Positions 32,006 through 47,354 of a DNA stretch of 64,000 nt are shown here, piece after piece. The DNA lies in the NCBI GenBank assembly GCA_958296135.2, contig CATQHZ020000001.1, positions 3,168,001-3,232,000 on the forward strand, in the 5' to 3' direction. The notes below the pieces were generated by a model that was not told the DNA's origin, ran no database searches, and saw nothing but the letters and a program-made list of their open reading frames with translations. How positions within the stretch are numbered: the stretch's first letter is position 1; each line of letters opens with the position of its first letter. The translations under genes were made by a program, and so were the position numbers. Source of the DNA: an uncultured Poribacteria bacterium. Its GTDB lineage: Bacteria; Poribacteria; WGA-4E; WGA-3G.

Positions 32006-33799
32006 TTAAGTCGATGCATCCGAGTCATCGTCCTCATCGCGGATTACCGGCTTGCCCATCACTTTTTCGATTGCCTTGAGCAGTGCTTCCTTACGCGCGT
32101 TAAAGAAACCCCAGAAATCGTTGCTACGGAGAGCGTCACCCCGGATAAGGTGGGAGGCGAGGACTTCATCCATGTCTAGACCTTCATCCATATTTGGACG
32201 TGGACCTGAAAGATATTTTTGTGACTCTTTCTGTATCTCTTTCAAATACACCGAAGGAGCCTTGTCGCCTATCACTCGCCGATTCGTCCCTTTTGAAATT
32301 GGGGTTTTGTTGATGATGCTATTGTAGTCATCCGCTTTGAACTCCCTTTTTTTGCACCAGGCTTTGGGGAAGATGTGGTGGATATCAATAGAATCGTCGA
32401 AGAATATTTGCTCGTCAATAGATCGACCGGTACGGAAATCAAGACAGCCATTACGCATGATCAACGCGTGAACACCCTTGTATGCAGCACTCGCTTTCGT
32501 CCGGAGCGTTTCCAAACGATGTGTTTGAAATGTTGCTTCCTGAATCATCGTAGGTTCAACAGCTTTGCCGTTTACCCAGTTTGTCACCTCCGAAAGATCG
32601 TTAGCAAATCGAAGATCTGCGGAAGTGCCGTAAAGTTCACCCAATACGCCACACCAGTACCAGCGTGTAAGAAATTTCTCACGAACCTTTCTGAGCTGGG
32701 CTACGCACCCAAGGTTCACCAGAATCGCTGTGAGCGGAACTAATTGAGCAGGATATGGCAGGCTGGCAGCGTCAAAAATTTTCTGCTCTTGCAGAAAGCG
32801 GGCTGCTTCCTTAAACCCTTCTTCAACCCTGTCGGCCCAGTCTTTGTAGTCGGCCACCCCGAGTCCCAATATATCGCTATTTTTGCAACTAATGGCCATC
32901 CTCGCCTTTGAATTGGTAACTAGGAGTGCAATGACCTTTAGAAAATTGACGTTCTTAAGGTCTGCGAGAACCGGATACTCACCCAAACGCTCTGCCCTAG
33001 TTTCCCAGTCCTCGCGGAGTAGAAAATCATCAGCCGCGAAGGTGGCGGTGAGTAACTCAAAAACGGTGAGTGGCTCTCCGCCTGTGTTGACTCTCTCAAA
33101 GACGTTGCAGACTGCTTCCTTCGGAGTTTGTTTATCAAGAATGATAACCGGGACATTGTAATCCTTGAAAACGTCAATGACTTTAATCTCGAAATTGTCC
33201 CACAACTCCATTTTGGCGGAATCACGGTCCCAATAATTGTTGTATCCTCTTCTCCACCTCGTATAGTCAAAGACTTTGTGGAGAGGAAACATTCCGCGCT
33301 TGTATTCTTTCTCGCGCGAAGATAAATCCATAGCTTGATCTCCGCGAAACTTCCTTACAATTTTGGTATCAGCTGGAACTGAAATGATGGATTCATCAAC
33401 CTTATCATCCACACACTTCTCCATGTCCATATAATACCAACGTTCAACGCGATTACCTCTCACATTTGTCGTCTGCACTGGTTTCTGAGCCACCAGAGAC
33501 TGAAACAGCGAGGTCAAGCGTTGTTGGCCGTCAAGAATTAGGGTTTCAGGTGCCCCCTGCGCTGATTGAGGATCAACCCCTTCAATAGGACGCACCTTGA
33601 ATCGGATATCCTCTCCGCCATTCTTCAGTGTCATTATCGCCCCTATTGGAAAGGCCTGCGATACACTAGCAATCAGACTTTGGATACGCTCGTGATCCCA
33701 TCTCCAGTCGCGCTGGAAGTCCGGAAGTTGGATTTTGCCTTCTCTGATTTCCCCAAGTAAATCCTTGAGGGATTTCTTGGTACTATCAAAGGTGCTCAT
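32006..33799 (-). CDS. GmrSD-family (DUF262 + DUF1524) modification-dependent restriction endonuclease
   Basis: LPDFQRDWRW, ILDGQQRLTSL, FERVNTGG, DIHHIFP...N...N. Visibly AT-richer than its neighbours. Confidence 0.88.
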   Translation of the reverse strand: MSTFDSTKKSLKDLLGEIREGKIQLPDFQRDWRWDHERIQSLIASVSQAFPIGAIMTLKNGGEDIRFKVRPIEGVDPQSAQGAPETLILDGQQRLTSLFQSLVAQKPVQTTNVRGNRVERWYYMDMEKCVDDKVDESIISVPADTKIVRKFRGDQAMDLSSREKEYKRGMFPLHKVFDYTRWRRGYNNYWDRDSAKMELWDNFEIKVIDVFKDYNVPVIILDKQTPKEAVCNVFERVNTGGEPLTVFELLTATFAADDFLLREDWETRAERLGEYPVLADLKNVNFLKVIALLVTNSKARMAISCKNSDILGLGVADYKDWADRVEEGFKEAARFLQEQKIFDAASLPYPAQLVPLTAILVNLGCVAQLRKVREKFLTRWYWCGVLGELYGTSADLRFANDLSEVTNWVNGKAVEPTMIQEATFQTHRLETLRTKASAAYKGVHALIMRNGCLDFRTGRSIDEQIFFDDSIDIHHIFPKAWCKKREFKADDYNSIINKTPISKGTNRRVIGDKAPSVYLKEIQKESQKYLSGPRPNMDEGLDMDEVLASHLIRGDALRSNDFWGFFNARKEALLKAIEKVMGKPVIRDEDDDSDAST

Positions 33800-33900
33800 A
33801 TTTGGATCTCCTATCAATAACAATTTATGCAAATTGAGAAAGCATCGCGATACCGTAGGCGGGACTCAGCAGAAATCCCGCCTTCAGATAAATCGCTATG

Positions 33901-35268: not shown

Positions 35269-37419
35269 TCATTCCGAGGTGACTTGGGAGACTGTGCAGG
35301 TGTTCCAAATCCAGAAATGATTTTTGGTTGCCCAGTCATCATCAAGACGCACCCGTTTTTGGGGTGTGGAAATCACCTGGGTGAGGTACCCATCAGTTAC
35401 CGTCACCCGATAGGAATGCTGAATAGCGTCGTCATTTCCGGACACAGTGAGTTTTTTCAGGACTCGCGTTCCGTTCGCCCATAGGCTGAGGGTATGCGTT
35501 GCACCTTCTGATGCACAGAAGGTGTTGGTGACGCTATAGGTTCCGTTGGGAAGATCGATTTTGAAGGCCGCTTCCTCGCTGCTCCAAACAGCATCTTGGA
35601 CAGACTTCTCTCCCTCTGGCGAAGTGGGCAGTGCCTCACCGCTCCCTCCTTCTTTAGTGAACAAAGGATATTCACGGACAGCATAATTGCTTTTCCTCAG
35701 ACGATGTGCTTCGTGCGGGGCGCGCGTATCCCATCCGAATTTGCCACTGACGTAGGCTGTATTCGGGCCGATAGCGTGATAACCCCCCGCGGTTTCGGCA
35801 CCCTTCGGTTGCATATCAAAGCGGATGATGAGGTTACCTCCCTCCATCTTATCCCATAAATCAAGCTGTGGCTTATCGGCACGCTTCTTTCGGAAAAGTT
35901 GGAGGTATTTCGTCTCATGGATAATCTCATAATCTTTCGCTGTCAGTTCTGCTTCTGCCCCCGGGTCGTACCAGGCGACAACGTAATCTACCTGCACATC
36001 TTCCCTCGCGGTGTTGCGATTGACCGGAAAGTAATAGTAAGCGGATTCGTAGTTTGCGAGATGGACTACGTCATCAACATATACGCCATAAAACGCAGTA
36101 GAATGCACAAACGGCGTGACGTATTCGATCCGGCCCAATGCATCCGATTTGTGCCAGCCATCCTCGCCGGCCCGGATCTCAAACACTGTGTGCGGTTCTA
36201 TGAGATGCGTGCCGGATACTAATTCTTCAATCTCTGGTGCGATGCGTCCGTGGTCGTACGCAGTTCTGCCGCAGTGGAGCAAACAGAAGGCGATGAGACA
36301 CGTCGTGATGGCGTATCTCAGGATTTTGTTGACGTTTGTGATCAACCACGGTGCGAGCATCAGCAGGATGTAAATATGAATCCGGTCATTGATCCAACCG
36401 CCGGGGCCGTAACTCCACGGTGCCCTGATGAACATCGCGGTGAACAGCAGAGCGATTAGCAGGAACGCATCGTTCTGTTTTACCCATTCCTTGCGGCGGA
36501 TGCGGTAAACGATAGAGATAACAGTGGCCGCTCCTAACACGATGAGCAGCCCTTGGTTGACAGGGACGTGCCAATCAGTGAAATAGACGATGGACTTGAT
36601 GCCCAAAAAGTAGTCCCAAATCCACTCCATGCCGCGATGGTTTCCTGTCGGATGCTCCTTGAGGCTGAATAGGTAGTAGTCGATTAGCACAAAATACATC
36701 GGCACCATGTAGAGCCCGAAGCGGACGAGGGGTTTGAGGCTATGCCAGAGTTGTCGTATCCATTCGGCGTTTCGTTCGCGCCAAGTCGTCGCTAACGCGT
36801 TGCCGCCCCACAGACAGCCAGCGGCGATGGACATCGCCAGCACGACGAGCCCATAGGAGGCGATGTGCGACAGATATGTCAACAGCAATAGGACATAAAG
36901 TCCGGCCAGGTGCTGCACCTGCATATCGTCTTTATGCTTCCACCAGAGCCCGAAACTGAAGAAGAAAAACGCGATGCTCAGCGTGAAGTTGTAAAACCCC
37001 ATGTAGAGGAGGTAGTTGTAGGCGAATGGGAAACCGAGCCAGCCGAACATGTGCCAATTCCCGCCTTCTTCCTTCGGTTTTCCATGAACAGCGTGCAGGA
37101 AATAGAAGAACGCAATCGGTATCATCCCAATCGCTATCGTCAGGAAGACCTTTTCCGCGATGACCGGCGGACACACGTAGAGCAACCCCAGCAGCAAAAT
37201 ATGCGACAGCCAGTTCGGAAAGATGGTGATGTTGAGTTTCCACGCGTCGCGCATCTTATAGTTTTCGGGTTTCGCATATTCCTTCAGGACCAGGCCGTTG
37301 TAGACGTGGCTCGCTCCGTCTTGCGAGGGAAAATAGGCGAAAATCCAGATGGGGATGAGGTGTAATACCAGCAACGCCACAAAGAGATGTTTCCATGTCC
37401 AGTTTTTCCAATTCAACAC
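35269..37419 (-). CDS. Multi-pass membrane protein, GT-C-like N-terminal region plus C-terminal carbohydrate-binding-like domain
   Basis: GTG at 37419 after AAGGAGG, about 12 TM segments, PSQDGASH motif, FKIDLPNGTYSVT. The ORF-track extension to 37590 is explained by the RuvC fragment. Confidence 0.75.
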   Translation of the reverse strand: MLNWKNWTWKHLFVALLVLHLIPIWIFAYFPSQDGASHVYNGLVLKEYAKPENYKMRDAWKLNITIFPNWLSHILLLGLLYVCPPVIAEKVFLTIAIGMIPIAFFYFLHAVHGKPKEEGGNWHMFGWLGFPFAYNYLLYMGFYNFTLSIAFFFFSFGLWWKHKDDMQVQHLAGLYVLLLLTYLSHIASYGLVVLAMSIAAGCLWGGNALATTWRERNAEWIRQLWHSLKPLVRFGLYMVPMYFVLIDYYLFSLKEHPTGNHRGMEWIWDYFLGIKSIVYFTDWHVPVNQGLLIVLGAATVISIVYRIRRKEWVKQNDAFLLIALLFTAMFIRAPWSYGPGGWINDRIHIYILLMLAPWLITNVNKILRYAITTCLIAFCLLHCGRTAYDHGRIAPEIEELVSGTHLIEPHTVFEIRAGEDGWHKSDALGRIEYVTPFVHSTAFYGVYVDDVVHLANYESAYYYFPVNRNTAREDVQVDYVVAWYDPGAEAELTAKDYEIIHETKYLQLFRKKRADKPQLDLWDKMEGGNLIIRFDMQPKGAETAGGYHAIGPNTAYVSGKFGWDTRAPHEAHRLRKSNYAVREYPLFTKEGGSGEALPTSPEGEKSVQDAVWSSEEAAFKIDLPNGTYSVTNTFCASEGATHTLSLWANGTRVLKKLTVSGNDDAIQHSYRVTVTDGYLTQVISTPQKRVRLDDDWATKNHFWIWNTCTVSQVTSE

Positions 37420-37443
37420 GTTTTCCCTCCTTGTAAAGCAGTC

Positions 37444-37557
37444 GTAGATGTTCACCCCGTAATCCAGCCTAGGCTGGTAGACTGTCATCAAGACTACTCC
37501 ACAATTCTTAATACCCGAATCGACACTCAGAATTGTCACGTCTTTCTGAATTGTCAT
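37444..37557 (-). pseudogene. 5' half (38 codons) of the split RuvC-like nuclease gene
   Basis: RBS AGGAG then MTIQKDVTILSVDSGIKNCGVVL, resembling the RuvC/RNase H strand 1-2 motif ILGIDPG...G. Confidence 0.62.
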
Positions 37558-37685
37558 CTCTCCTGCGTTAGTAGTGGGAACACTTCCCACTTGTTAGTTA
37601 GGTTGGGCGGGACATCCGCCTCCTACCCCCAAAGCCCTCCCACACATCCGCGTGTAGGAGGGCTAATTGGGAGTATTCGGTTAGG

Positions 37686-38384
37686 TTACGGCTTGTCATT
37701 TGCCAAGCGTCGCTGAATCATCACCTTCAACATCCAATTGTCGGTTACCCAATATGTCTGAGGGTAATGCAATTTGTCGATAATATTACGCAACATCTCA
37801 AGCCATTGGTTTGTTCCGTAACGCTCAGGATCCTTCACAGGTATTCCACGATAGAGTTCCTTAAGTGCAATTAGGGCAAGTTCGGATTCAGTCATTGCAA
37901 TAATCGATAGACTGAAGTTATCGACAAGCACCACACCTATGTCTTGATCTTCGATAACACGCTTGATGTAAAGTTCCAGACCGCCCTTCATTTCATCTAA
38001 TAATGCCTTTTCACTGATACGACGATTGCCGAGAATTTTGTTGCGTTGTTCTCGTGTTATGGACTTGATGCTTTGTATGTAAGCATCAACCCAAAATTCA
38101 CGTTCGTCTTCAAAAACCATCTCAGTTTTCTTCAAAAGCAAGTGTTTTTTATCAGCGAGTCTATCGATAGATTCTTTAAATGGTCTAACACTCTCGGCAT
38201 AGTTAAAAACCAGAGGATCTCTGTAGATTGTCTCAATTCGATGTTTGACTAATTCTTGCACTGCATCAACCATCGCGGCTTTCGCTTCCGCCTTGATGCT
38301 TTCGACATCCTCTTCCGCTGCCAACACGTCCCCGACCAGTAGTGAAACTGCGACGAGTAAGATGGCAAATAAAACCCTTTTCAT
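37686..38384 (-). CDS. Secreted helical hypothetical protein (cargo of the element)
   Basis: RBS AAGGAG, signal peptide MKRVLFAILLVAVSLLVGDVLA, AT-rich, 232 aa. Confidence 0.8.
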   Translation of the reverse strand: MKRVLFAILLVAVSLLVGDVLAAEEDVESIKAEAKAAMVDAVQELVKHRIETIYRDPLVFNYAESVRPFKESIDRLADKKHLLLKKTEMVFEDEREFWVDAYIQSIKSITREQRNKILGNRRISEKALLDEMKGGLELYIKRVIEDQDIGVVLVDNFSLSIIAMTESELALIALKELYRGIPVKDPERYGTNQWLEMLRNIIDKLHYPQTYWVTDNWMLKVMIQRRLANDKP

Positions 38385-38462
38385 TTCAAAGAACTCCTTG
38401 TGGGAACTTTTCCGACTAGTTTGTAGGGCGGGACACGTATGCCCCGCCGTGCGACTACCCCG

Positions 38463-39026
38463 TTACTCATCGAAGAGTTCGGGGGAGCTATCGGACTTCA
38501 ACCAATCTAGTTGCGTCCCTTGTTTATGCCAAGTCGTCTGTCGACGTAGGGTTAGAACCTCGAAGACAAACCTTGACTTTTGACTAATCACGGGGTGCAA
38601 GCGTTCAAGCGGTATGTGCCGCTTGTGTTGCAGAACCTCCGAAGCGTAAAATCCGACATAGGCAGTCGCCGCCGCGTCCGTGATATGGTGAGTGTTATCC
38701 GTAAACTGAGTCAACGCATATACGGCGATGGCGACTTCAACCTTACTTGCATTTGGGTTTGATGTCAGCAACCGCTTTGTAAGTTTAGCTGGCACAAAGA
38801 GTGCAGAGATTTTCAAATCCTCTGCCATCTCTGCCAAACCTAGTGACAGATGTCCCATCGAATCGTTGGGGAGGACGTTGCCTTTGACAGGCAGACGACC
38901 CTCGATGCACATTCCTCCGATGTTGAGATCACGATATACCTCCAACTCACCTTTGTAGTTGGTGATGCGCCGGATCCTGACTTGTGTGGCATCGGGCGAT
39001 TCCGAACGACGAAGGTGAATGTAGTC
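38463..39026 (-). pseudogene. 3' half (187 codons) of the split RuvC-like nuclease gene, with no start codon at its 5' end
   Basis: Frame open from 39026. GMCIEG, VPAKLTKRLLTSNPNASKVEV and HHITDAAATA parallel the RuvC motifs VAIE, P..VK..VTG.G.A.K.QV and DAADALAIA. Confidence 0.65.
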
Positions 39027-39698
39027 TTATCCGATGCCTGTCTCCTCGGCGAAATAGAGGCAATGCGCTGTCAGCGGGCATTTTTCGCACAACGGCTTCC
39101 GCGCGTTGCAAATCTGCCTGCCGAAGTAGATAAGGTTCATGTGAAACGGGTACGCCTTTCCTTCCGGTACGATGGGTGGCAGCACTTGATGCGCTTTCTC
39201 CGCGCTACAATTCTGCGGGATGAAGCCGAGACGTTTGGAAATCCGCAGAATGTGCGTATCCACGGGGAAAACTTCTCTGCCGCACGCGAAGGAGAGCACC
39301 ACCGAGGCGGTTTTGATGCCGATGCCTTTGTGTTGACACAGCAATGCTAACGCCGCTTCGGTTTCCATGTCGTGGATAAACGCCAGGGATAAATCGCCGT
39401 GTTCTTCCTTCAGCCACGCGAGGAAGTTTTTAATGGTGCGGCTTTTCTGTTTCGAGAGCCCCGCGATGCGGATTGCATCGATGATGTCCGATTCATCGGC
39501 ATGCAACACAGCCTCCCACGTTGGAAAATGTTCACGGAGGCGCGCGTAGCCTTTGTCGCGGCTGACATCTGTCGTGTTTTGCGACAACACCGTTAAGATG
39601 AGGCTATCGAGGACGTTTTCAGGGCCGCCCCGTGTCGGCACGCCGAGCAACGCCTCTAGCGCATCGGATATGATTGCGGCTTTTTGCTTCAATTCCAA
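39027..39698 (-). CDS. nth: Endonuclease III family HhH-GPD DNA glycosylase
   Basis: VLSQNTTD, KGIGIKTA, FPVDTHILRISKRLG, CNARKPLCEKCPLTAHC 4Fe-4S motif. Confidence 0.88.
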   Translation of the reverse strand: MELKQKAAIISDALEALLGVPTRGGPENVLDSLILTVLSQNTTDVSRDKGYARLREHFPTWEAVLHADESDIIDAIRIAGLSKQKSRTIKNFLAWLKEEHGDLSLAFIHDMETEAALALLCQHKGIGIKTASVVLSFACGREVFPVDTHILRISKRLGFIPQNCSAEKAHQVLPPIVPEGKAYPFHMNLIYFGRQICNARKPLCEKCPLTAHCLYFAEETGIG

Positions 39699-39877: not shown

Positions 39878-41338
39878 TCAAAAACTAAGCGGCAACGTGC
39901 GCAGGAGCGGCTTCCCCGTATAGGGGTTAATCATATCCGGTAGCCGCGGTATCTTCTCCTGAAATCGGCTCTCAACCGAATAGAGTTGGACGCGCGGGAA
40001 CACGTGGTTGCCTATCTGCACCGTGCCGAGTTTCGCCGTTTCGTTCTGCGCTGCCGGTGAAGTGACATCCTCCAGCGTCACATAGATACCCATCACGGCG
40101 TTTTCACGTTGCACGACATGCAGGAAATCGCGCAGCTGACTCAGCGAGAATTTCCCACTCTTTACCTGAGCGAGGACGACCTTGGTATAGTCCCCATCCG
40201 GTGTTTCCAGCGTATTCCCGATGCCATCGATGCCGCCATCTGCGCCGCCGCGCTCGTTCGGCGCGAGGCCGGGGATGAGGTTAATCGCCCATATCTCAAA
40301 GTGTCGGCGGTTCTCACGAGCAAGCCGCGTCGCGCTGGCCAGATCAGCTGGCACGCCGTAGGTTGGGATGTTCCGGCCGGGAAATCGCTGAGTTTTGATG
40401 ACATCCAGCGCGGACGGATTGATGTCAATACCAATCCATTTGCGGTTGAGGGTATCGGCGGCGACGACAGTAGTCCCGCAGCCACAGAACGGGTCCAGCA
40501 CAATATCGCCTTCGTTTGACGATGCTCTGATAATACGCTCAAGAAGCGCGAGCGGTTTCTGTGTGCCATAACCGAGCCGCTCCTTAGACTGCGTCTGACC
40601 GAGGGAGTGAATATCGTTCCACCAACTCGGAATTGCGCGCCCTGGGGATTCATCAAGGTAACTTCTGCCGCCGGGATATTCTTTGTAGGCTCTCCCCGCT
40701 TCATCTACCTTGTTGAACTTTTTCACCGCCGCTGCTGTCAACGCGGTGTAGGGCCGGTGAAACACCGCTTCTTTTTCGGACATGCCGTAGAACAAGATGA
40801 TGTCATGCTTGCGATGGAAGCCGAACTTGGGCCCCTGTCCGCCGGGGGGATAACACCACACAATTTCATTCCTGAAATTCTTTGTCCCGAATATTCCATC
40901 CATCAGCAGCTTGAGATAGTGGCTTGCTGTCGCATCGCAGTGGAGATAGATGCTGCCAGTGGGTTTGAGAACGCGATGGATTTCCAGCAACCGGAGTGCC
41001 ATGTAACTGACATAAGCCATCATCCCACAGTCGCCGAGAATCTGGTGCAACCCACCGATGACTTTGTGAATTGGCGAGGCAACCATGCCGGTGAGTTCAT
41101 CGACACGCGCCTGCGCATCGGGGCTCCAGTGCCACGTATCGTCAAACGCTTTGAGTGAGGCGGCCCGGGTGCCCTTGTTGGGTCCCTCTTCAATCGCGTA
41201 AAGTTGGTTATATTTCTGCTTGGAATTGAACGGCGGATCGCCGTAGACGATGTCCACCCAATTGTCGGGCCATTGGCGGAGAATGTGTAGGTTATCTCCG
41301 TAGTGGAGGCTGTTCAGTTCCGGAATTGTTAAGTGCAT
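39878..41338 (-). CDS. Beta-class N4/N6 DNA methyltransferase fused to an Mrr-like restriction endonuclease domain
   Basis: YGDPPF, YGTQKPLALLERII, DPFCGCGTT, then DGGIDG...AQVKSG. Confidence 0.9.
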   Translation of the reverse strand: MHLTIPELNSLHYGDNLHILRQWPDNWVDIVYGDPPFNSKQKYNQLYAIEEGPNKGTRAASLKAFDDTWHWSPDAQARVDELTGMVASPIHKVIGGLHQILGDCGMMAYVSYMALRLLEIHRVLKPTGSIYLHCDATASHYLKLLMDGIFGTKNFRNEIVWCYPPGGQGPKFGFHRKHDIILFYGMSEKEAVFHRPYTALTAAAVKKFNKVDEAGRAYKEYPGGRSYLDESPGRAIPSWWNDIHSLGQTQSKERLGYGTQKPLALLERIIRASSNEGDIVLDPFCGCGTTVVAADTLNRKWIGIDINPSALDVIKTQRFPGRNIPTYGVPADLASATRLARENRRHFEIWAINLIPGLAPNERGGADGGIDGIGNTLETPDGDYTKVVLAQVKSGKFSLSQLRDFLHVVQRENAVMGIYVTLEDVTSPAAQNETAKLGTVQIGNHVFPRVQLYSVESRFQEKIPRLPDMINPYTGKPLLRTLPLSF

Positions 41339-42453: not shown

Positions 42454-42554
42454 ATAGTTACCGTTGGGGGCGAGACTGCTAGGCGCGGCTTCCCGCCGTG
42501 TCTCTCGCCCCACCTATCTAGCAGAAGGTGACAACCAACTGGAACGGTGACTCT

Positions 42555-43778
42555 ATGGCACTACGAGCCCAGAAGATAGCACTCAATCCAACTGAGGAAC
42601 AGGTCGAGGCATTTAACCGGCATGTGCAATTCGCACGCGCCGCCTATAATGCCGCGCATTCGGATTGGAACGCCGACCGCCGTAACTCTCTCTACGATTT
42701 GAAGAAAATCTTCAACTCACGGAAGCGCGAGGTGTTCCCCGAATTCGCCGCGTGTTCTCAAAACGTAGGCAAGAATGCTATCCACGCTTTCGGTGATGCT
42801 ATCGCCAGATACAAATCGGGACAGAATGGTGCGCCCAAACGGAAGACGCATAAGTCTGCCCCTGCGTTCCAGATTGATAATGGTGTCAATACTGTCAAAA
42901 TGACGGCGGACGGTAAACACGTCGTCCTCCCGATAATTGGACAGGTTAGGTTGCATGAAACCCCTCGATGGACAGGTGAAGTTCGCCGTGCTTTCGTCAA
43001 GCGAATCGCACATCGCTGGTATCTCAGCATCCTTGTCGAAGTTGATGTCCCTGAACTGCCTGACACGTCAGCACTGCCCCCTGCAGGTTGTGATGTCGGC
43101 ATCTCTGCCCTCGCCACGATGGACGATGGCACTGTCTACGAAAATCCGCGTGCCTTGCGCGTCAATGAACGCAAACTACGTCGCGCAAATAAGGCACTCG
43201 CCCGCAAGACGTTCCTGAGCCGCAACTGGTGGAAGGCGAAGGAACGCCTCGCCCGCCTGCATGCCCGTATCGCAAATGTGCGAACCGATGCGCATCATCA
43301 GGCAACACATCGCATTCTGAAAGGCATTTCAGCACTTGGGATTGAAAGCCTCACCGTCAAAGGTTTGATGAAAAATCGCAAGCTTAGCAAGGCACTCGCT
43401 GACGCAAGCCTCGGTGGTTTTCTCGTCAAACTTAAATACAAAGCGGTGCGCCGGGGTATCCGTATTGTGTCAGCAGATAAGTTCTGGCCGTCAACACAAC
43501 GATGCAGTTCCTGTGGCTACGTCAAACGTGGCGAATTCAAACTGACGCTCAAGGACAGAGAATACCACTGCGGTATCTGCGGATTGGTAGAGGACAGAGA
43601 CGTTAACGCCGCTATAAACCTTCGACAACTCGCCTCAAGCACTGAGGAGAGCCAAAACGCCTGTGGAGATGCTGTAACACCTACCCTGGTAGGCTGGCAT
43701 CAGAACCCGCTTGTGCGCGGAAGAAGCAGGAAACCGCTGACCGAACAGAGACTCGTAGACTTTGCACATGGCAGATAA
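42555..43778 (+). CDS. tnpB: RNA-guided endonuclease TnpB
   Basis: N-terminal K..LNPTEEQ, RuvC-I GCDVGI, RuvC-II GIESL, zinc finger CSSCG...CGICG, RuvC-III DRDVNAAINL. Confidence 0.95.
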   Translation: MALRAQKIALNPTEEQVEAFNRHVQFARAAYNAAHSDWNADRRNSLYDLKKIFNSRKREVFPEFAACSQNVGKNAIHAFGDAIARYKSGQNGAPKRKTHKSAPAFQIDNGVNTVKMTADGKHVVLPIIGQVRLHETPRWTGEVRRAFVKRIAHRWYLSILVEVDVPELPDTSALPPAGCDVGISALATMDDGTVYENPRALRVNERKLRRANKALARKTFLSRNWWKAKERLARLHARIANVRTDAHHQATHRILKGISALGIESLTVKGLMKNRKLSKALADASLGGFLVKLKYKAVRRGIRIVSADKFWPSTQRCSSCGYVKRGEFKLTLKDREYHCGICGLVEDRDVNAAINLRQLASSTEESQNACGDAVTPTLVGWHQNPLVRGRSRKPLTEQRLVDFAHGR

Positions 43779-45857: not shown

Positions 45858-46427
45858 ATGAATCTACTAGAATTGAACCAATTCGCGCAAGAAGGGATCC
45901 TCCCCGAAAACGTCACGATGACGTTGGAGGAATTCCTCGCAAACGACGTAGAAGGATACGAATACGTTAATGGAGAATTAATACCCAGGCCCGGGACATC
46001 ACTAGAACACGGTTCGATCGGGGCGAATGTTTTTCGGTACTTAGACCGGTATGTCTACGAGAAGCAGCTTGGCAAAGTGTATTTCTCGGAAACGGGCTTC
46101 CAAGTCAACGAGCGTGTGCTCAAACCGGATATCGCTTTTCTTTCCACCGAGCGAATTCCCGAAGACCAGCGCAAGGCATCCCCTGTTCCACCAGACCTGG
46201 CGATTGAGGTAGTGTCCCCGTCAGACGCGTGGGATCGCGTTGAAGAAAAGGCGTTTGCCTATCTGGCAGCTGGCACACGAATGGTATGGGTTTTCAAACC
46301 TATCTCACAGACTGTGACGGTGTATCGCTCCAGAACCGACATCAAGTTGCTGACTTGCAATGATACCCTTACCGGTGAGGATGCCGTTGAAGGGTTTTCC
46401 TGTCAGGTGGCACTGCTGTTTGAATAG
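45858..46427 (+). CDS. Uma2 family endonuclease-like protein
   Basis: YEYVNGEL, KPDIAF, PPDLAIEVVSPS, YLAAGTRMVWV. Confidence 0.92.
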   Translation: MNLLELNQFAQEGILPENVTMTLEEFLANDVEGYEYVNGELIPRPGTSLEHGSIGANVFRYLDRYVYEKQLGKVYFSETGFQVNERVLKPDIAFLSTERIPEDQRKASPVPPDLAIEVVSPSDAWDRVEEKAFAYLAAGTRMVWVFKPISQTVTVYRSRTDIKLLTCNDTLTGEDAVEGFSCQVALLFE

Positions 46428-46490
46428 CAGGGGCCTTGTGTTCCCCTATCCAAGTCCCCGGCCCTTGAACTTGAGGAGCATTTCTAGGAA

Positions 46491-47354
46491 ATGGACAACA
46501 CGAAAGAACGGAAGGTTGCGAATCGGAAGGAAAAAGCGGCGCAGCGCGGTAAACACTATTACACCGATAATCACACCTTTCAGCGGAAAAATACGCCGTG
46601 CCCCGCGGAATTCACCGATAAAATCATCTGCGGCGATTCGCTCCAGGTGCTGAAAGCACTACCGGATAATTGCATCGATCTCGTCTTTACTTCGCCGCCC
46701 TACAACTTCGGCTTGGATTACAAGCAGACCGGGGATGCCTTTGCGTGGGAAGTCTACTTTGAGGAACTGTTCCGCATCTTTGATGAGTGCATCCGAACGC
46801 TGAAGTTTGGCGGCCGCATCGTCGTGAACGTGCAACCGCTGTTCTCGGATTATATTCCGACGCACCATATCGTTTCGCAGTTCTTTATGGACAGAAAACT
46901 CATCTGGAAAGGCGAAATTTTGTGGGAGAAAAACCACTACAATTGCAAGTATACCGCTTGGGGCAGCTGGAAAAGTCCGTCCAGTCCCTATCTCAAATAT
47001 ACGTGGGAGTTTTTGGAAATATTTTGCAAGGGGAGTCTGAAAAAGGCGGGCAGCCCTGCCGATGCAGACATTGACGCTGAGTCATTTAAAAAATGGGTAT
47101 CGGCGAAATGGACCATCGCGCCGGAGCGGCAGATGCACAAATTCGAGCATCCGGCGATGTTTCCGGAGGAATTAGCGTATCGGGTGCTGAAGTTGTTCAG
47201 TTTCAAAGGCGATGTAATTCTTGATCCCTTCGCTGGCGTGGGGACGACGTGTGTTGCGGCGCGTAAGACAGAGCGGCACTTCTTGGGGATAGACATTTCG
47301 CCGGATTATTGCCGAACCGCCGAGGCGCGATTGCATCAAATCTTACCTATGTAG
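46491..47354 (+). CDS. Beta-class N4/N6 DNA methyltransferase, apparently orphan
   Basis: FTSPPYN, HPAMFPEEL, DPFAGVGTT. Confidence 0.92.
   Translation: MDNTKERKVANRKEKAAQRGKHYYTDNHTFQRKNTPCPAEFTDKIICGDSLQVLKALPDNCIDLVFTSPPYNFGLDYKQTGDAFAWEVYFEELFRIFDECIRTLKFGGRIVVNVQPLFSDYIPTHHIVSQFFMDRKLIWKGEILWEKNHYNCKYTAWGSWKSPSSPYLKYTWEFLEIFCKGSLKKAGSPADADIDAESFKKWVSAKWTIAPERQMHKFEHPAMFPEELAYRVLKLFSFKGDVILDPFAGVGTTCVAARKTERHFLGIDISPDYCRTAEARLHQILPM

Follow-up and report, generated by a model that had tools for sequence, protein, structure and literature searches.

The SSV-type 'suicidal' integrases of SSV1, SSV2, pTN3 and pT26-2 carry the recombination site within the gene that encodes them, and an integrated copy cannot make the whole protein; these enzymes are tyrosine recombinases with a Phage_integr_3 domain and are stated to be exclusive to archaea in the part of PMC8371274 that was consulted. 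The literature retrieved under 'suicidal integrase' was mostly archaeal, as judged by titles and the opening lines of abstracts; the rest dealt with microbial pseudogenes (a review) and with mobile elements of coastal communities (a survey). Among RuvC-like recombinases with circular intermediates, only IS110/IS1111 turned up in the literature excerpts retrieved, where these bridge- or seek-RNA-guided elements are described as having a RuvC-like DEDD recombinase, a circular form and a very short core. A literature search that combined RuvC with small circular extrachromosomal elements in metagenomes gave no relevant result. Here we describe a locus in a 64,000-nt stretch of DNA from an uncultured Poribacteria bacterium (contig CATQHZ020000001.1; the whole stretch is hereafter called the window), in which a 1,587-nt insert with a copy of GACT at each border lies between nth and a membrane protein gene and carries a RuvC-like gene in two pieces, together with an ORFan.

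An annotation made beforehand from the sequence alone (the first-pass annotation) had stated that no element like this was known to be described. It overlooked the archaeal SSV-type 'suicidal' integrases, which are the closest analogue (PMC8371274). As in the SSV-type case, the gene of a presumed circular element is split, with the N-terminal piece at one end of the insert and the C-terminal piece at the other. Unlike the SSV-type enzymes, which are proven tyrosine integrases, the product of the split gene is RuvC-like, its recombinase activity is only hypothesised, and no integrase family was matched. The SSV-type elements are also many kb in size and archaeal, whereas the insert described here is 1.58 kb long, has an identical core of only 4 bp and lies among bacterial-type host genes. 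The host was identified as bacterial by its canonical, bacterial-type ruvC (163.6 bits), RuvC being a marker of bacteria, and by a type II/IV secretion ATPase encoded in the window.

On the minus strand, the back half of the RuvC-like gene stands ahead of its front half. When the two pieces were joined by their coordinates through one GACT, an open frame of 225 codons was obtained. Closure of the frame needs exactly one GACT, which gives a circle of 1,583 nt, and a circle of 1,579 nt would shift the frame. The first-pass annotation had reported this permutation and the joined protein of 225 aa, and its minus-strand order, coordinates and peptide strings were all correct when compared with the sequence and the open reading frame (ORF) listing. 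It had also held that the joined protein should align with its homologues continuously across the junction, and the alignment was indeed continuous. The N-terminal piece aligned to residues 11-45 (E 6e-9) and the C-terminal piece to residues 70-222 (E 3e-55) of P0002, an intact homologue of 226 aa with 55% identity that was found by a search with the C-terminal piece, and a MAFFT alignment of the joined protein with five intact proteins was gap-free at the joint. A profile hidden Markov model (HMM) built from the five intact homologues only matched the joined protein as a single domain (residues 1-216 on model positions 16-230) with 212.5 bits; with the same model, the pieces scored apart gave 187.7 + 18.9 bits. 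Since the joined protein matched the HMM as an ungapped domain, the in-frame closure is more than chance, and we conclude that the RuvC-like gene is circularly permuted in the chromosome. The joint is located at the third strand of the RuvC fold: the N-terminal piece contains the first catalytic Asp (SVDSG), strands 1 and 2 and part of strand 3, and the C-terminal piece contains the catalytic motifs E (CIEG) and H..D (HHITDAAATA) together with an extension of about 50 aa at the C-terminus.

The kinship with RuvC, which the first-pass annotation had read from the D, E and H..D motifs, was borne out by sequence and structure comparisons. RuvC proteins occupied the top six places in a sequence profile search of PDB (E 0.027-0.72), with the GID..G and H..D motifs aligned, and hhalign of the family against the host's own RuvC gave a probability of 95% (E 3.9e-8, 148 columns) and placed D, E, H and D in register, so that all four catalytic positions were accounted for. 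In the PDB search, made with hmmsearch, the catalytic motifs lined up with those of Thermus thermophilus RuvC. An AlphaFold2 model of P0002, with a mean pLDDT of only 53.9, has the RuvC order beta-beta-beta-alpha-beta-alpha-beta-alpha, and the top 10 Foldseek matches to this model were all bacterial RuvC (E 5.5e-8 to 3.9e-6, TM to target 0.55-0.58). In Pfam at E up to 5, four intact homologues matched RuvC only, with 13.1-18.0 bits, under the PF02075 cut-off of 22.2, and the C-terminal piece from the window gave no RuvC match by itself in the Pfam scan. PHROG 159 ('RuvC-like Holliday junction resolvase') was matched at E 1e-8 to 6e-6, and the nearest ESM Atlas clusters were RuvC-domain proteins 199-234 aa long, most of them from tailed phages. 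The family resembles both phage RuvC (PHROG 159) and cellular RuvC (PF02075) in its fold order, its D/E/H/D positions and its size of about 200-230 aa, as in the viral clusters; it differs from both in its sub-threshold Pfam score, its extreme rarity and an extra, conserved C-terminal region that ends in QLDWL. As judged from these comparisons, the family is best described as a distant phage-type RuvC core that is followed by some 50 aa of conserved C-terminal sequence, and as a nuclease by prediction.

A word-indexed search with the family profile found five clusters of 226-287 aa, and an exhaustive HMMER scan of 1.84 billion representatives returned only three proteins at E <= 0.001, one of which was the window's own truncated ORF. 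The family is extremely rare, with five clusters among about 15 billion proteins. Its intact homologues come from metagenomes (P0002, 226 aa; P0005, 229 aa; P0006, 287 aa; P0007, 231 aa; P0008, 233 aa; P0009, 233 aa). None of the five other clusters is split (0/5); they are intact and come from contigs that range from 2,445 to 39,679 nt. With intact members on contigs as long as 39.7 kb, the family is not limited to circles of 1.6 kb.

The insert is foreign to the genome and precisely bounded, as the first-pass annotation had supposed. The borders are exact, the 1,587-nt stretch is present in one copy in the 5.19-Mb genome, and the GC content at third codon positions (GC3), 0.55 in the C-terminal piece, 0.59 in the N-terminal piece and 0.44 in the ORFan, is lower than the 0.64-0.68 of three host genes. 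A DNA search of 40 relatives gave no match to the insert except one weak 70-nt hit in a genome of the same genus (G002:C1:948800-948869), which has 75% identity to the first 70 nt of the C-terminal piece (E 6.4e-4) and is possibly due to chance. In a six-frame search of 176 genomes of the phylum, the family was found only in the window's genome, together with one hit at E 0.001 that is probably a chance match. Tandem duplication followed by deletion was rejected as the origin of the arrangement, since none of the relatives searched carries a copy. No relatives of the element were found in IMG/VR, JGI metagenomes or GTDB representative genomes by peptide and DNA scans, nor in phage and plasmid records by tblastn, all with few patterns, which do not show absence.

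The two genes that flank the insert are neighbors in related genomes. In 22 of 24 genomes of the same family, nth and the membrane protein gene are on one contig, with the matched stretches 19-286 nt apart; of the other two genomes, one has them on different contigs and in one the membrane protein gene alone was matched. The spacer between nth and the next gene differs among relatives in both sequence and length (about 20 to 290 nt). Removal of the insert would leave 24 nt between nth and the next start, as the first-pass annotation had reconstructed, and this is comparable to the natural spacer of 22 nt in G009, a genome of the same family. Between the right GACT and the GTG of the host gene at 37419 there are 20 bases, which include AAGGAGG. 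In G002 the nth spacer is about 286 nt long (L003 2290-2520) and is taken up by a repeat some 55 nt long, present four times, with a GC-rich hairpin (GCGCGGGGGCC..CCCCCGCG), which resembles a REP-like array at the same spot.

The assembly is of the metagenome type (4 contigs, completeness 94.7%, contamination 3.6%). The stretch is contained in four runs of one sample, and the Logan contigs of three of these runs (X1, X3 and X4), made with a second assembler, were compared with the window. In each of the three runs a single Logan contig of 3,706-3,708 nt covered positions 36900-39600 unbroken and with even depth, and there were no differences from the window except for a single 1-nt insertion in one contig. 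Both borders, for which the first-pass annotation had sought read support, are therefore inside single contigs of a second assembler in 3/3 runs of one sample. As this sample may be the assembly's own source, the junctions are confirmed against mis-assembly, and the population is not independent. A tandem multimer in the chromosome was ruled out, because the contigs pass through both borders without a break and with even depth. Run X5 belongs to a different study and contained two 151-nt contigs identical to nth (39076-39226 and 39447-39597, depth 2; junctions uncovered), which indicates that the same or a very close organism is present in a second sample. No RNA sequencing runs containing the stretch were listed.

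The insert reads as two transcription units, the RuvC-like gene and the ORFan, arranged head to tail. Spacer A, ahead of the ORFan, contains a 9-bp GC-rich hairpin (38448-38427), the motif TGTCCCGCCCTAC (38435-38423) and the near-palindrome GTCGGAA-N3-TTCCCAC (38416-38400), followed by the ribosome-binding site (RBS) of the ORFan. Spacer B contains a 13-bp hairpin (37664-37633), the motif TGTCCCGCCCAAC (37614-37602) and the perfect palindrome GTGGGAA-N3-TTCCCAC (37590-37574), followed by the RBS (GGAG) of the N-terminal piece and its ATG at 37557. The module common to both spacers is made up of a GC-rich hairpin, TGTCCCGCCC(A/T)AC, GT(G/C)GGAA-N3-TTCCCAC, an RBS and ATG. Each module motif occurs exactly twice genome-wide, once ahead of each gene of the element, and the reversed-pattern control gave 0 matches. 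The modules could be element-specific promoter/operator-like sequences, with each gene apparently trailed by a GC-rich hairpin; a scan for consensus promoters and terminators was at shuffle level. A pattern scan of IMG/VR for the combined module motif found none, which does not show absence. The presence of two similar module-led units around a circle favors a small self-contained circle over a random fragment. No homologue of the ORFan, a putative secreted cargo protein, was found, with no match in ESM Atlas and no family below chance level in Pfam, PHROG, NCBIfam or PADLOC, and its single-sequence structure model had a pLDDT of 41.

The permuted geometry points to a precursor that was a circle, or a head-to-tail repeat of 1,583 nt, and that was opened inside the RuvC-like gene. 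We give about an even chance to the incidental capture, at GACT microhomology, of a 1,583-bp circle or a head-to-tail multimer of it, of which the insert would represent one turn. The small circle or multimer would have entered the chromosome by a single crossover or by end-joining at GACT, which in the circle would fall at codons 39-40 of the RuvC-like gene that the element carries. Integration would then have split the gene, placing the start-less C-terminal piece at the left end and the 38-codon N-terminal piece at the right end, and thereby inactivated it. This would most likely have been a one-off capture at a 4-bp microhomology by a host or other enzyme, and the disruption of the gene would be incidental. 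In illegitimate integration at microhomology, one crossover at a few shared bases inserts a full turn of the circle, and the gene that bears the break is permuted. The locus agrees with this process in that a full turn is flanked by shared bases and the gene at the break is permuted; it differs from the microhomology integration of small plasmids in that it has no recognisable replication gene and that the sequence round the break is symmetric.

Incidental capture was ranked first on the basis of the single split copy, the share of the circle taken up by the gene, the 4-bp core, the variable target, the likeness to phage resolvases with no second catalytic domain matched, and the failure to find a guide-like RNA. 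The RuvC-like gene occupies 678 of the 1,583 nt of the circle, so that a random opening would fall inside it about 43% of the time. The two sites are identical over 4 bp (7/9 when the flanks are counted), and the target is the variable spacer between nth and the next gene, which is not conserved like the dif site of Xer-exploiting elements (IMEX); dif itself was not searched for. Even when read in this conservative way, the locus documents a phage-type RuvC family that is very rare and a circular unit of 1.58 kb whose two genes come with control modules of their own and with no recognisable replication gene; it is also a clean natural example of the capture of a circle at 4 bp.

Several observations weigh against incidental capture. 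The circular precursor is itself something that we infer from the geometry of the insert, and the circle would lack a recognisable replication gene, which leaves the persistence of a 1.58-kb episome unexplained. Both pieces of the gene are undegraded. It is at the joint that the protein is least like its family, with 2-3 of 18 residues identical as opposed to about 50% elsewhere, and the S and C of 'VRASxCY', conserved in the family, are replaced in the window's copy; divergence at this place would be in keeping with a recombination site inside the ORF. In the closed junction a perfect 6-bp inverted repeat, GGTGAA-N14-TTCACC, surrounds GACT, and a comparable inverted repeat was found at only 75 of the 1,583 positions of the circle (4.7%), a rarity that hints at the core site of a recombinase. 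Finally, neither a circle joint nor an empty-site joint was detected in the contigs of X1, X3 and X4, which had no loose end at the borders, and the assembly contained no second (episomal) copy; since contigs drop rare variants, a rare circle or empty site could escape detection, but an abundant one would break the contigs at the borders.

The first-pass annotation had proposed that integration is programmed, with the RuvC-like protein recombining the GACT site in its own ORF with the chromosome, so that the gene is silenced upon integration and restored upon excision. We consider this unlikely, although it comes next after incidental capture. The inverted repeat around the core and the divergence exactly at the joint are in its favor, as is the retention of all catalytic residues. 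No other recombinase was found in the insert: Pfam listed no conventional integrase there, as the first-pass annotation had also noted, and no integrase family was matched in Pfam scans of the pieces and four intact homologues (E up to 1-5). The IS110 family, according to the excerpts consulted, shows that RuvC-like DEDD enzymes can be recombinases with circular intermediates, and within the limits of these excerpts the locus is like IS110/IS1111 in having a RuvC-like catalytic domain in a putative mobile element and a very short core. Unlike IS110/IS1111, however, the family matched RuvC only, with no DEDD model or second (Tnp) catalytic domain in Pfam at E up to 5, and its extension is only about 50 aa. 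A further difference is that IS110 genes remain intact when integrated, whereas the gene in the window is split.

A guide RNA, as used by IS110/IS1111, was not found with Rfam or in 6-mer tests. Rfam returned nothing relevant (the best match, at E 3, was to an unrelated snoRNA model), and in tests of guide-like complementarity the number of 6-mer matches between a spacer and a site was equalled or exceeded in 42-500 of 500 shuffles, according to which spacer was paired with which site. The hexamer TAGTCG, which is complementary to the closed-junction core CGACTA, occurs twice in spacer A on the minus strand, where it flanks the hairpin (38456-38450 and 38416-38411). The overall 6-mer test did not reach significance, as 44 of 500 shuffles had at least the observed count. 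That no RNA family and no significant guide-like complementarity were found was counted against the programmed mechanism, as were other results. The only split copy is the one in the window; the five other clusters, on contigs of up to 39.7 kb, are intact, and no homologue split at the same codon, of the kind that the first-pass annotation had proposed to look for, was found elsewhere. The contigs run through both junctions without circle or empty site, and the split gene alone cannot drive excision. With these results, the 4-bp core and the 43% share of the gene, the proposal of programmed integration through a site in the nuclease gene was not sustained. Likewise, we found no support for the RuvC-like protein as the integrating enzyme, its nearest kin being phage Holliday-junction resolvases, and the presence of a canonical ruvC in the host was also counted against a programmed reaction carried out by the element's protein.

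In its most specific form, the proposal would make the insert a bacterial 'suicidal' minicircle, an autonomous element of 1.58 kb whose sole enzyme is a 225-aa RuvC-fold recombinase, site-specific for a GACT core with 6-bp repeats; this we regard as somewhat more doubtful still. If such a minicircle were real, no smaller self-integrating element would be known, and gene-splitting integration would be seen for the first time both outside archaea and outside tyrosine recombinases. If the split were programmed, gene-splitting integration would extend to bacteria and to a minimal RuvC-fold enzyme, with relevance to the evolution of mobile elements and to compact recombinases. The observation is real and unusual, and a programmed, self-catalysed mechanism is unproven.

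The integrating enzyme could instead have been supplied in trans, either as a recombinase of a helper phage or plasmid or as a transposase whose target duplication is 4 bp long and is retained in the circle as a single copy. Copy-out/paste-in insertion sequences retain one copy of the target duplication in the circle junction. The 4-bp direct repeat at both borders and the closure of the frame only when exactly one GACT is kept would be in agreement with such an enzyme, as would the subterminal TTCACC/GGTGAA inverted repeats and the lack of an integrase found in the insert. On the other hand, the inverted repeats are located 3 and 7 nt inside the borders and not at the tips, the element is single-copy, no candidate helper was identified, and the few-pattern scans of the phage, plasmid, viral and GTDB collections found no relatives. 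We therefore think that integration in trans is improbable, and we judge in the same way the explanation that the insert is the remnant of a larger element (such as a phage of some 40 kb) that integrated via a site in its RuvC-like gene and lost its interior, possibly by recombination between the modules. The phage-type RuvC, the intact homologue on a 39.7-kb contig and the two repeated modules, which could be used as substrates for deletion, are compatible with a remnant. However, the insert is a compact and tidy unit of two genes, each with its module, RBS and hairpin, and the spacers of 78 and 128 nt hold no gene fragments; moreover, phage records gave no match, and the ORFan, having no homologue, cannot be tied to a phage. 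An assembly artefact or chimera is scarcely credible, since the only point in its favor, a metagenome-type assembly in 4 contigs, is opposed by the unbroken, evenly covered contigs of the second assembler in 3/3 runs and by the exact borders with intact host genes on both sides.

Features of the insert and its host flanks, given as coordinates in the 64,000-nt window; all features of the element are on the minus strand, and the region is read from 39900 to 36600
Feature	Position	Strand	Basis	Remarks
nth (endonuclease III family, HhH-GPD)	39698..39027	-	Pfam E 3.7e-16	host flank; intact, stop TAA
Left GACT direct repeat (junction attL)	39023..39026	-	sequence	abuts the nth TAA
C-terminal piece of the RuvC-like gene	38463..39026	-	homology	187 codons (D + 186 aa) and stop (38465-38463); start-less
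Spacer A	38385..38462	-	sequence	78 nt
ORFan	37686..38384	-	ORF listing	232 aa; signal-peptide-like N-terminus
Spacer B	37558..37685	-	sequence	128 nt
N-terminal piece of the RuvC-like gene	37444..37557	-	homology	38 codons from ATG 37557, ending ...NIY
Right GACT direct repeat (junction attR)	37440..37443	-	sequence
Membrane protein gene, 716 aa	35269..37419	-	adjoins nth in relatives	host flank; own RBS, GTG start 37419

The pieces of the RuvC-like gene are also in frame with their surroundings. After integration, the N-terminal piece shares its frame with the host gene downstream, which gives an ORF of 773 aa from a GTG at 37590 (37590..35269, minus strand), and the C-terminal piece lies in the same frame as the nth TAA (39029..39024, minus strand). 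The module in spacer B now faces that downstream gene and could drive its expression. A TnpB / IS605 OrfB-type gene (42528..43778, plus strand; OrfB_IS605 E 9.4e-24, with a Cas12f1-like TNB domain) lies 3.5 kb from the insert and is unrelated to the RuvC-like family studied here. The neighborhood is rich in defence genes, namely GmrSD, a DNA methylase with a fused Mrr-like nuclease domain and, beside a second methylase, a Uma2-family nuclease (32006..33832, minus strand; 39878..41338, minus strand; 45858..47354, plus strand).

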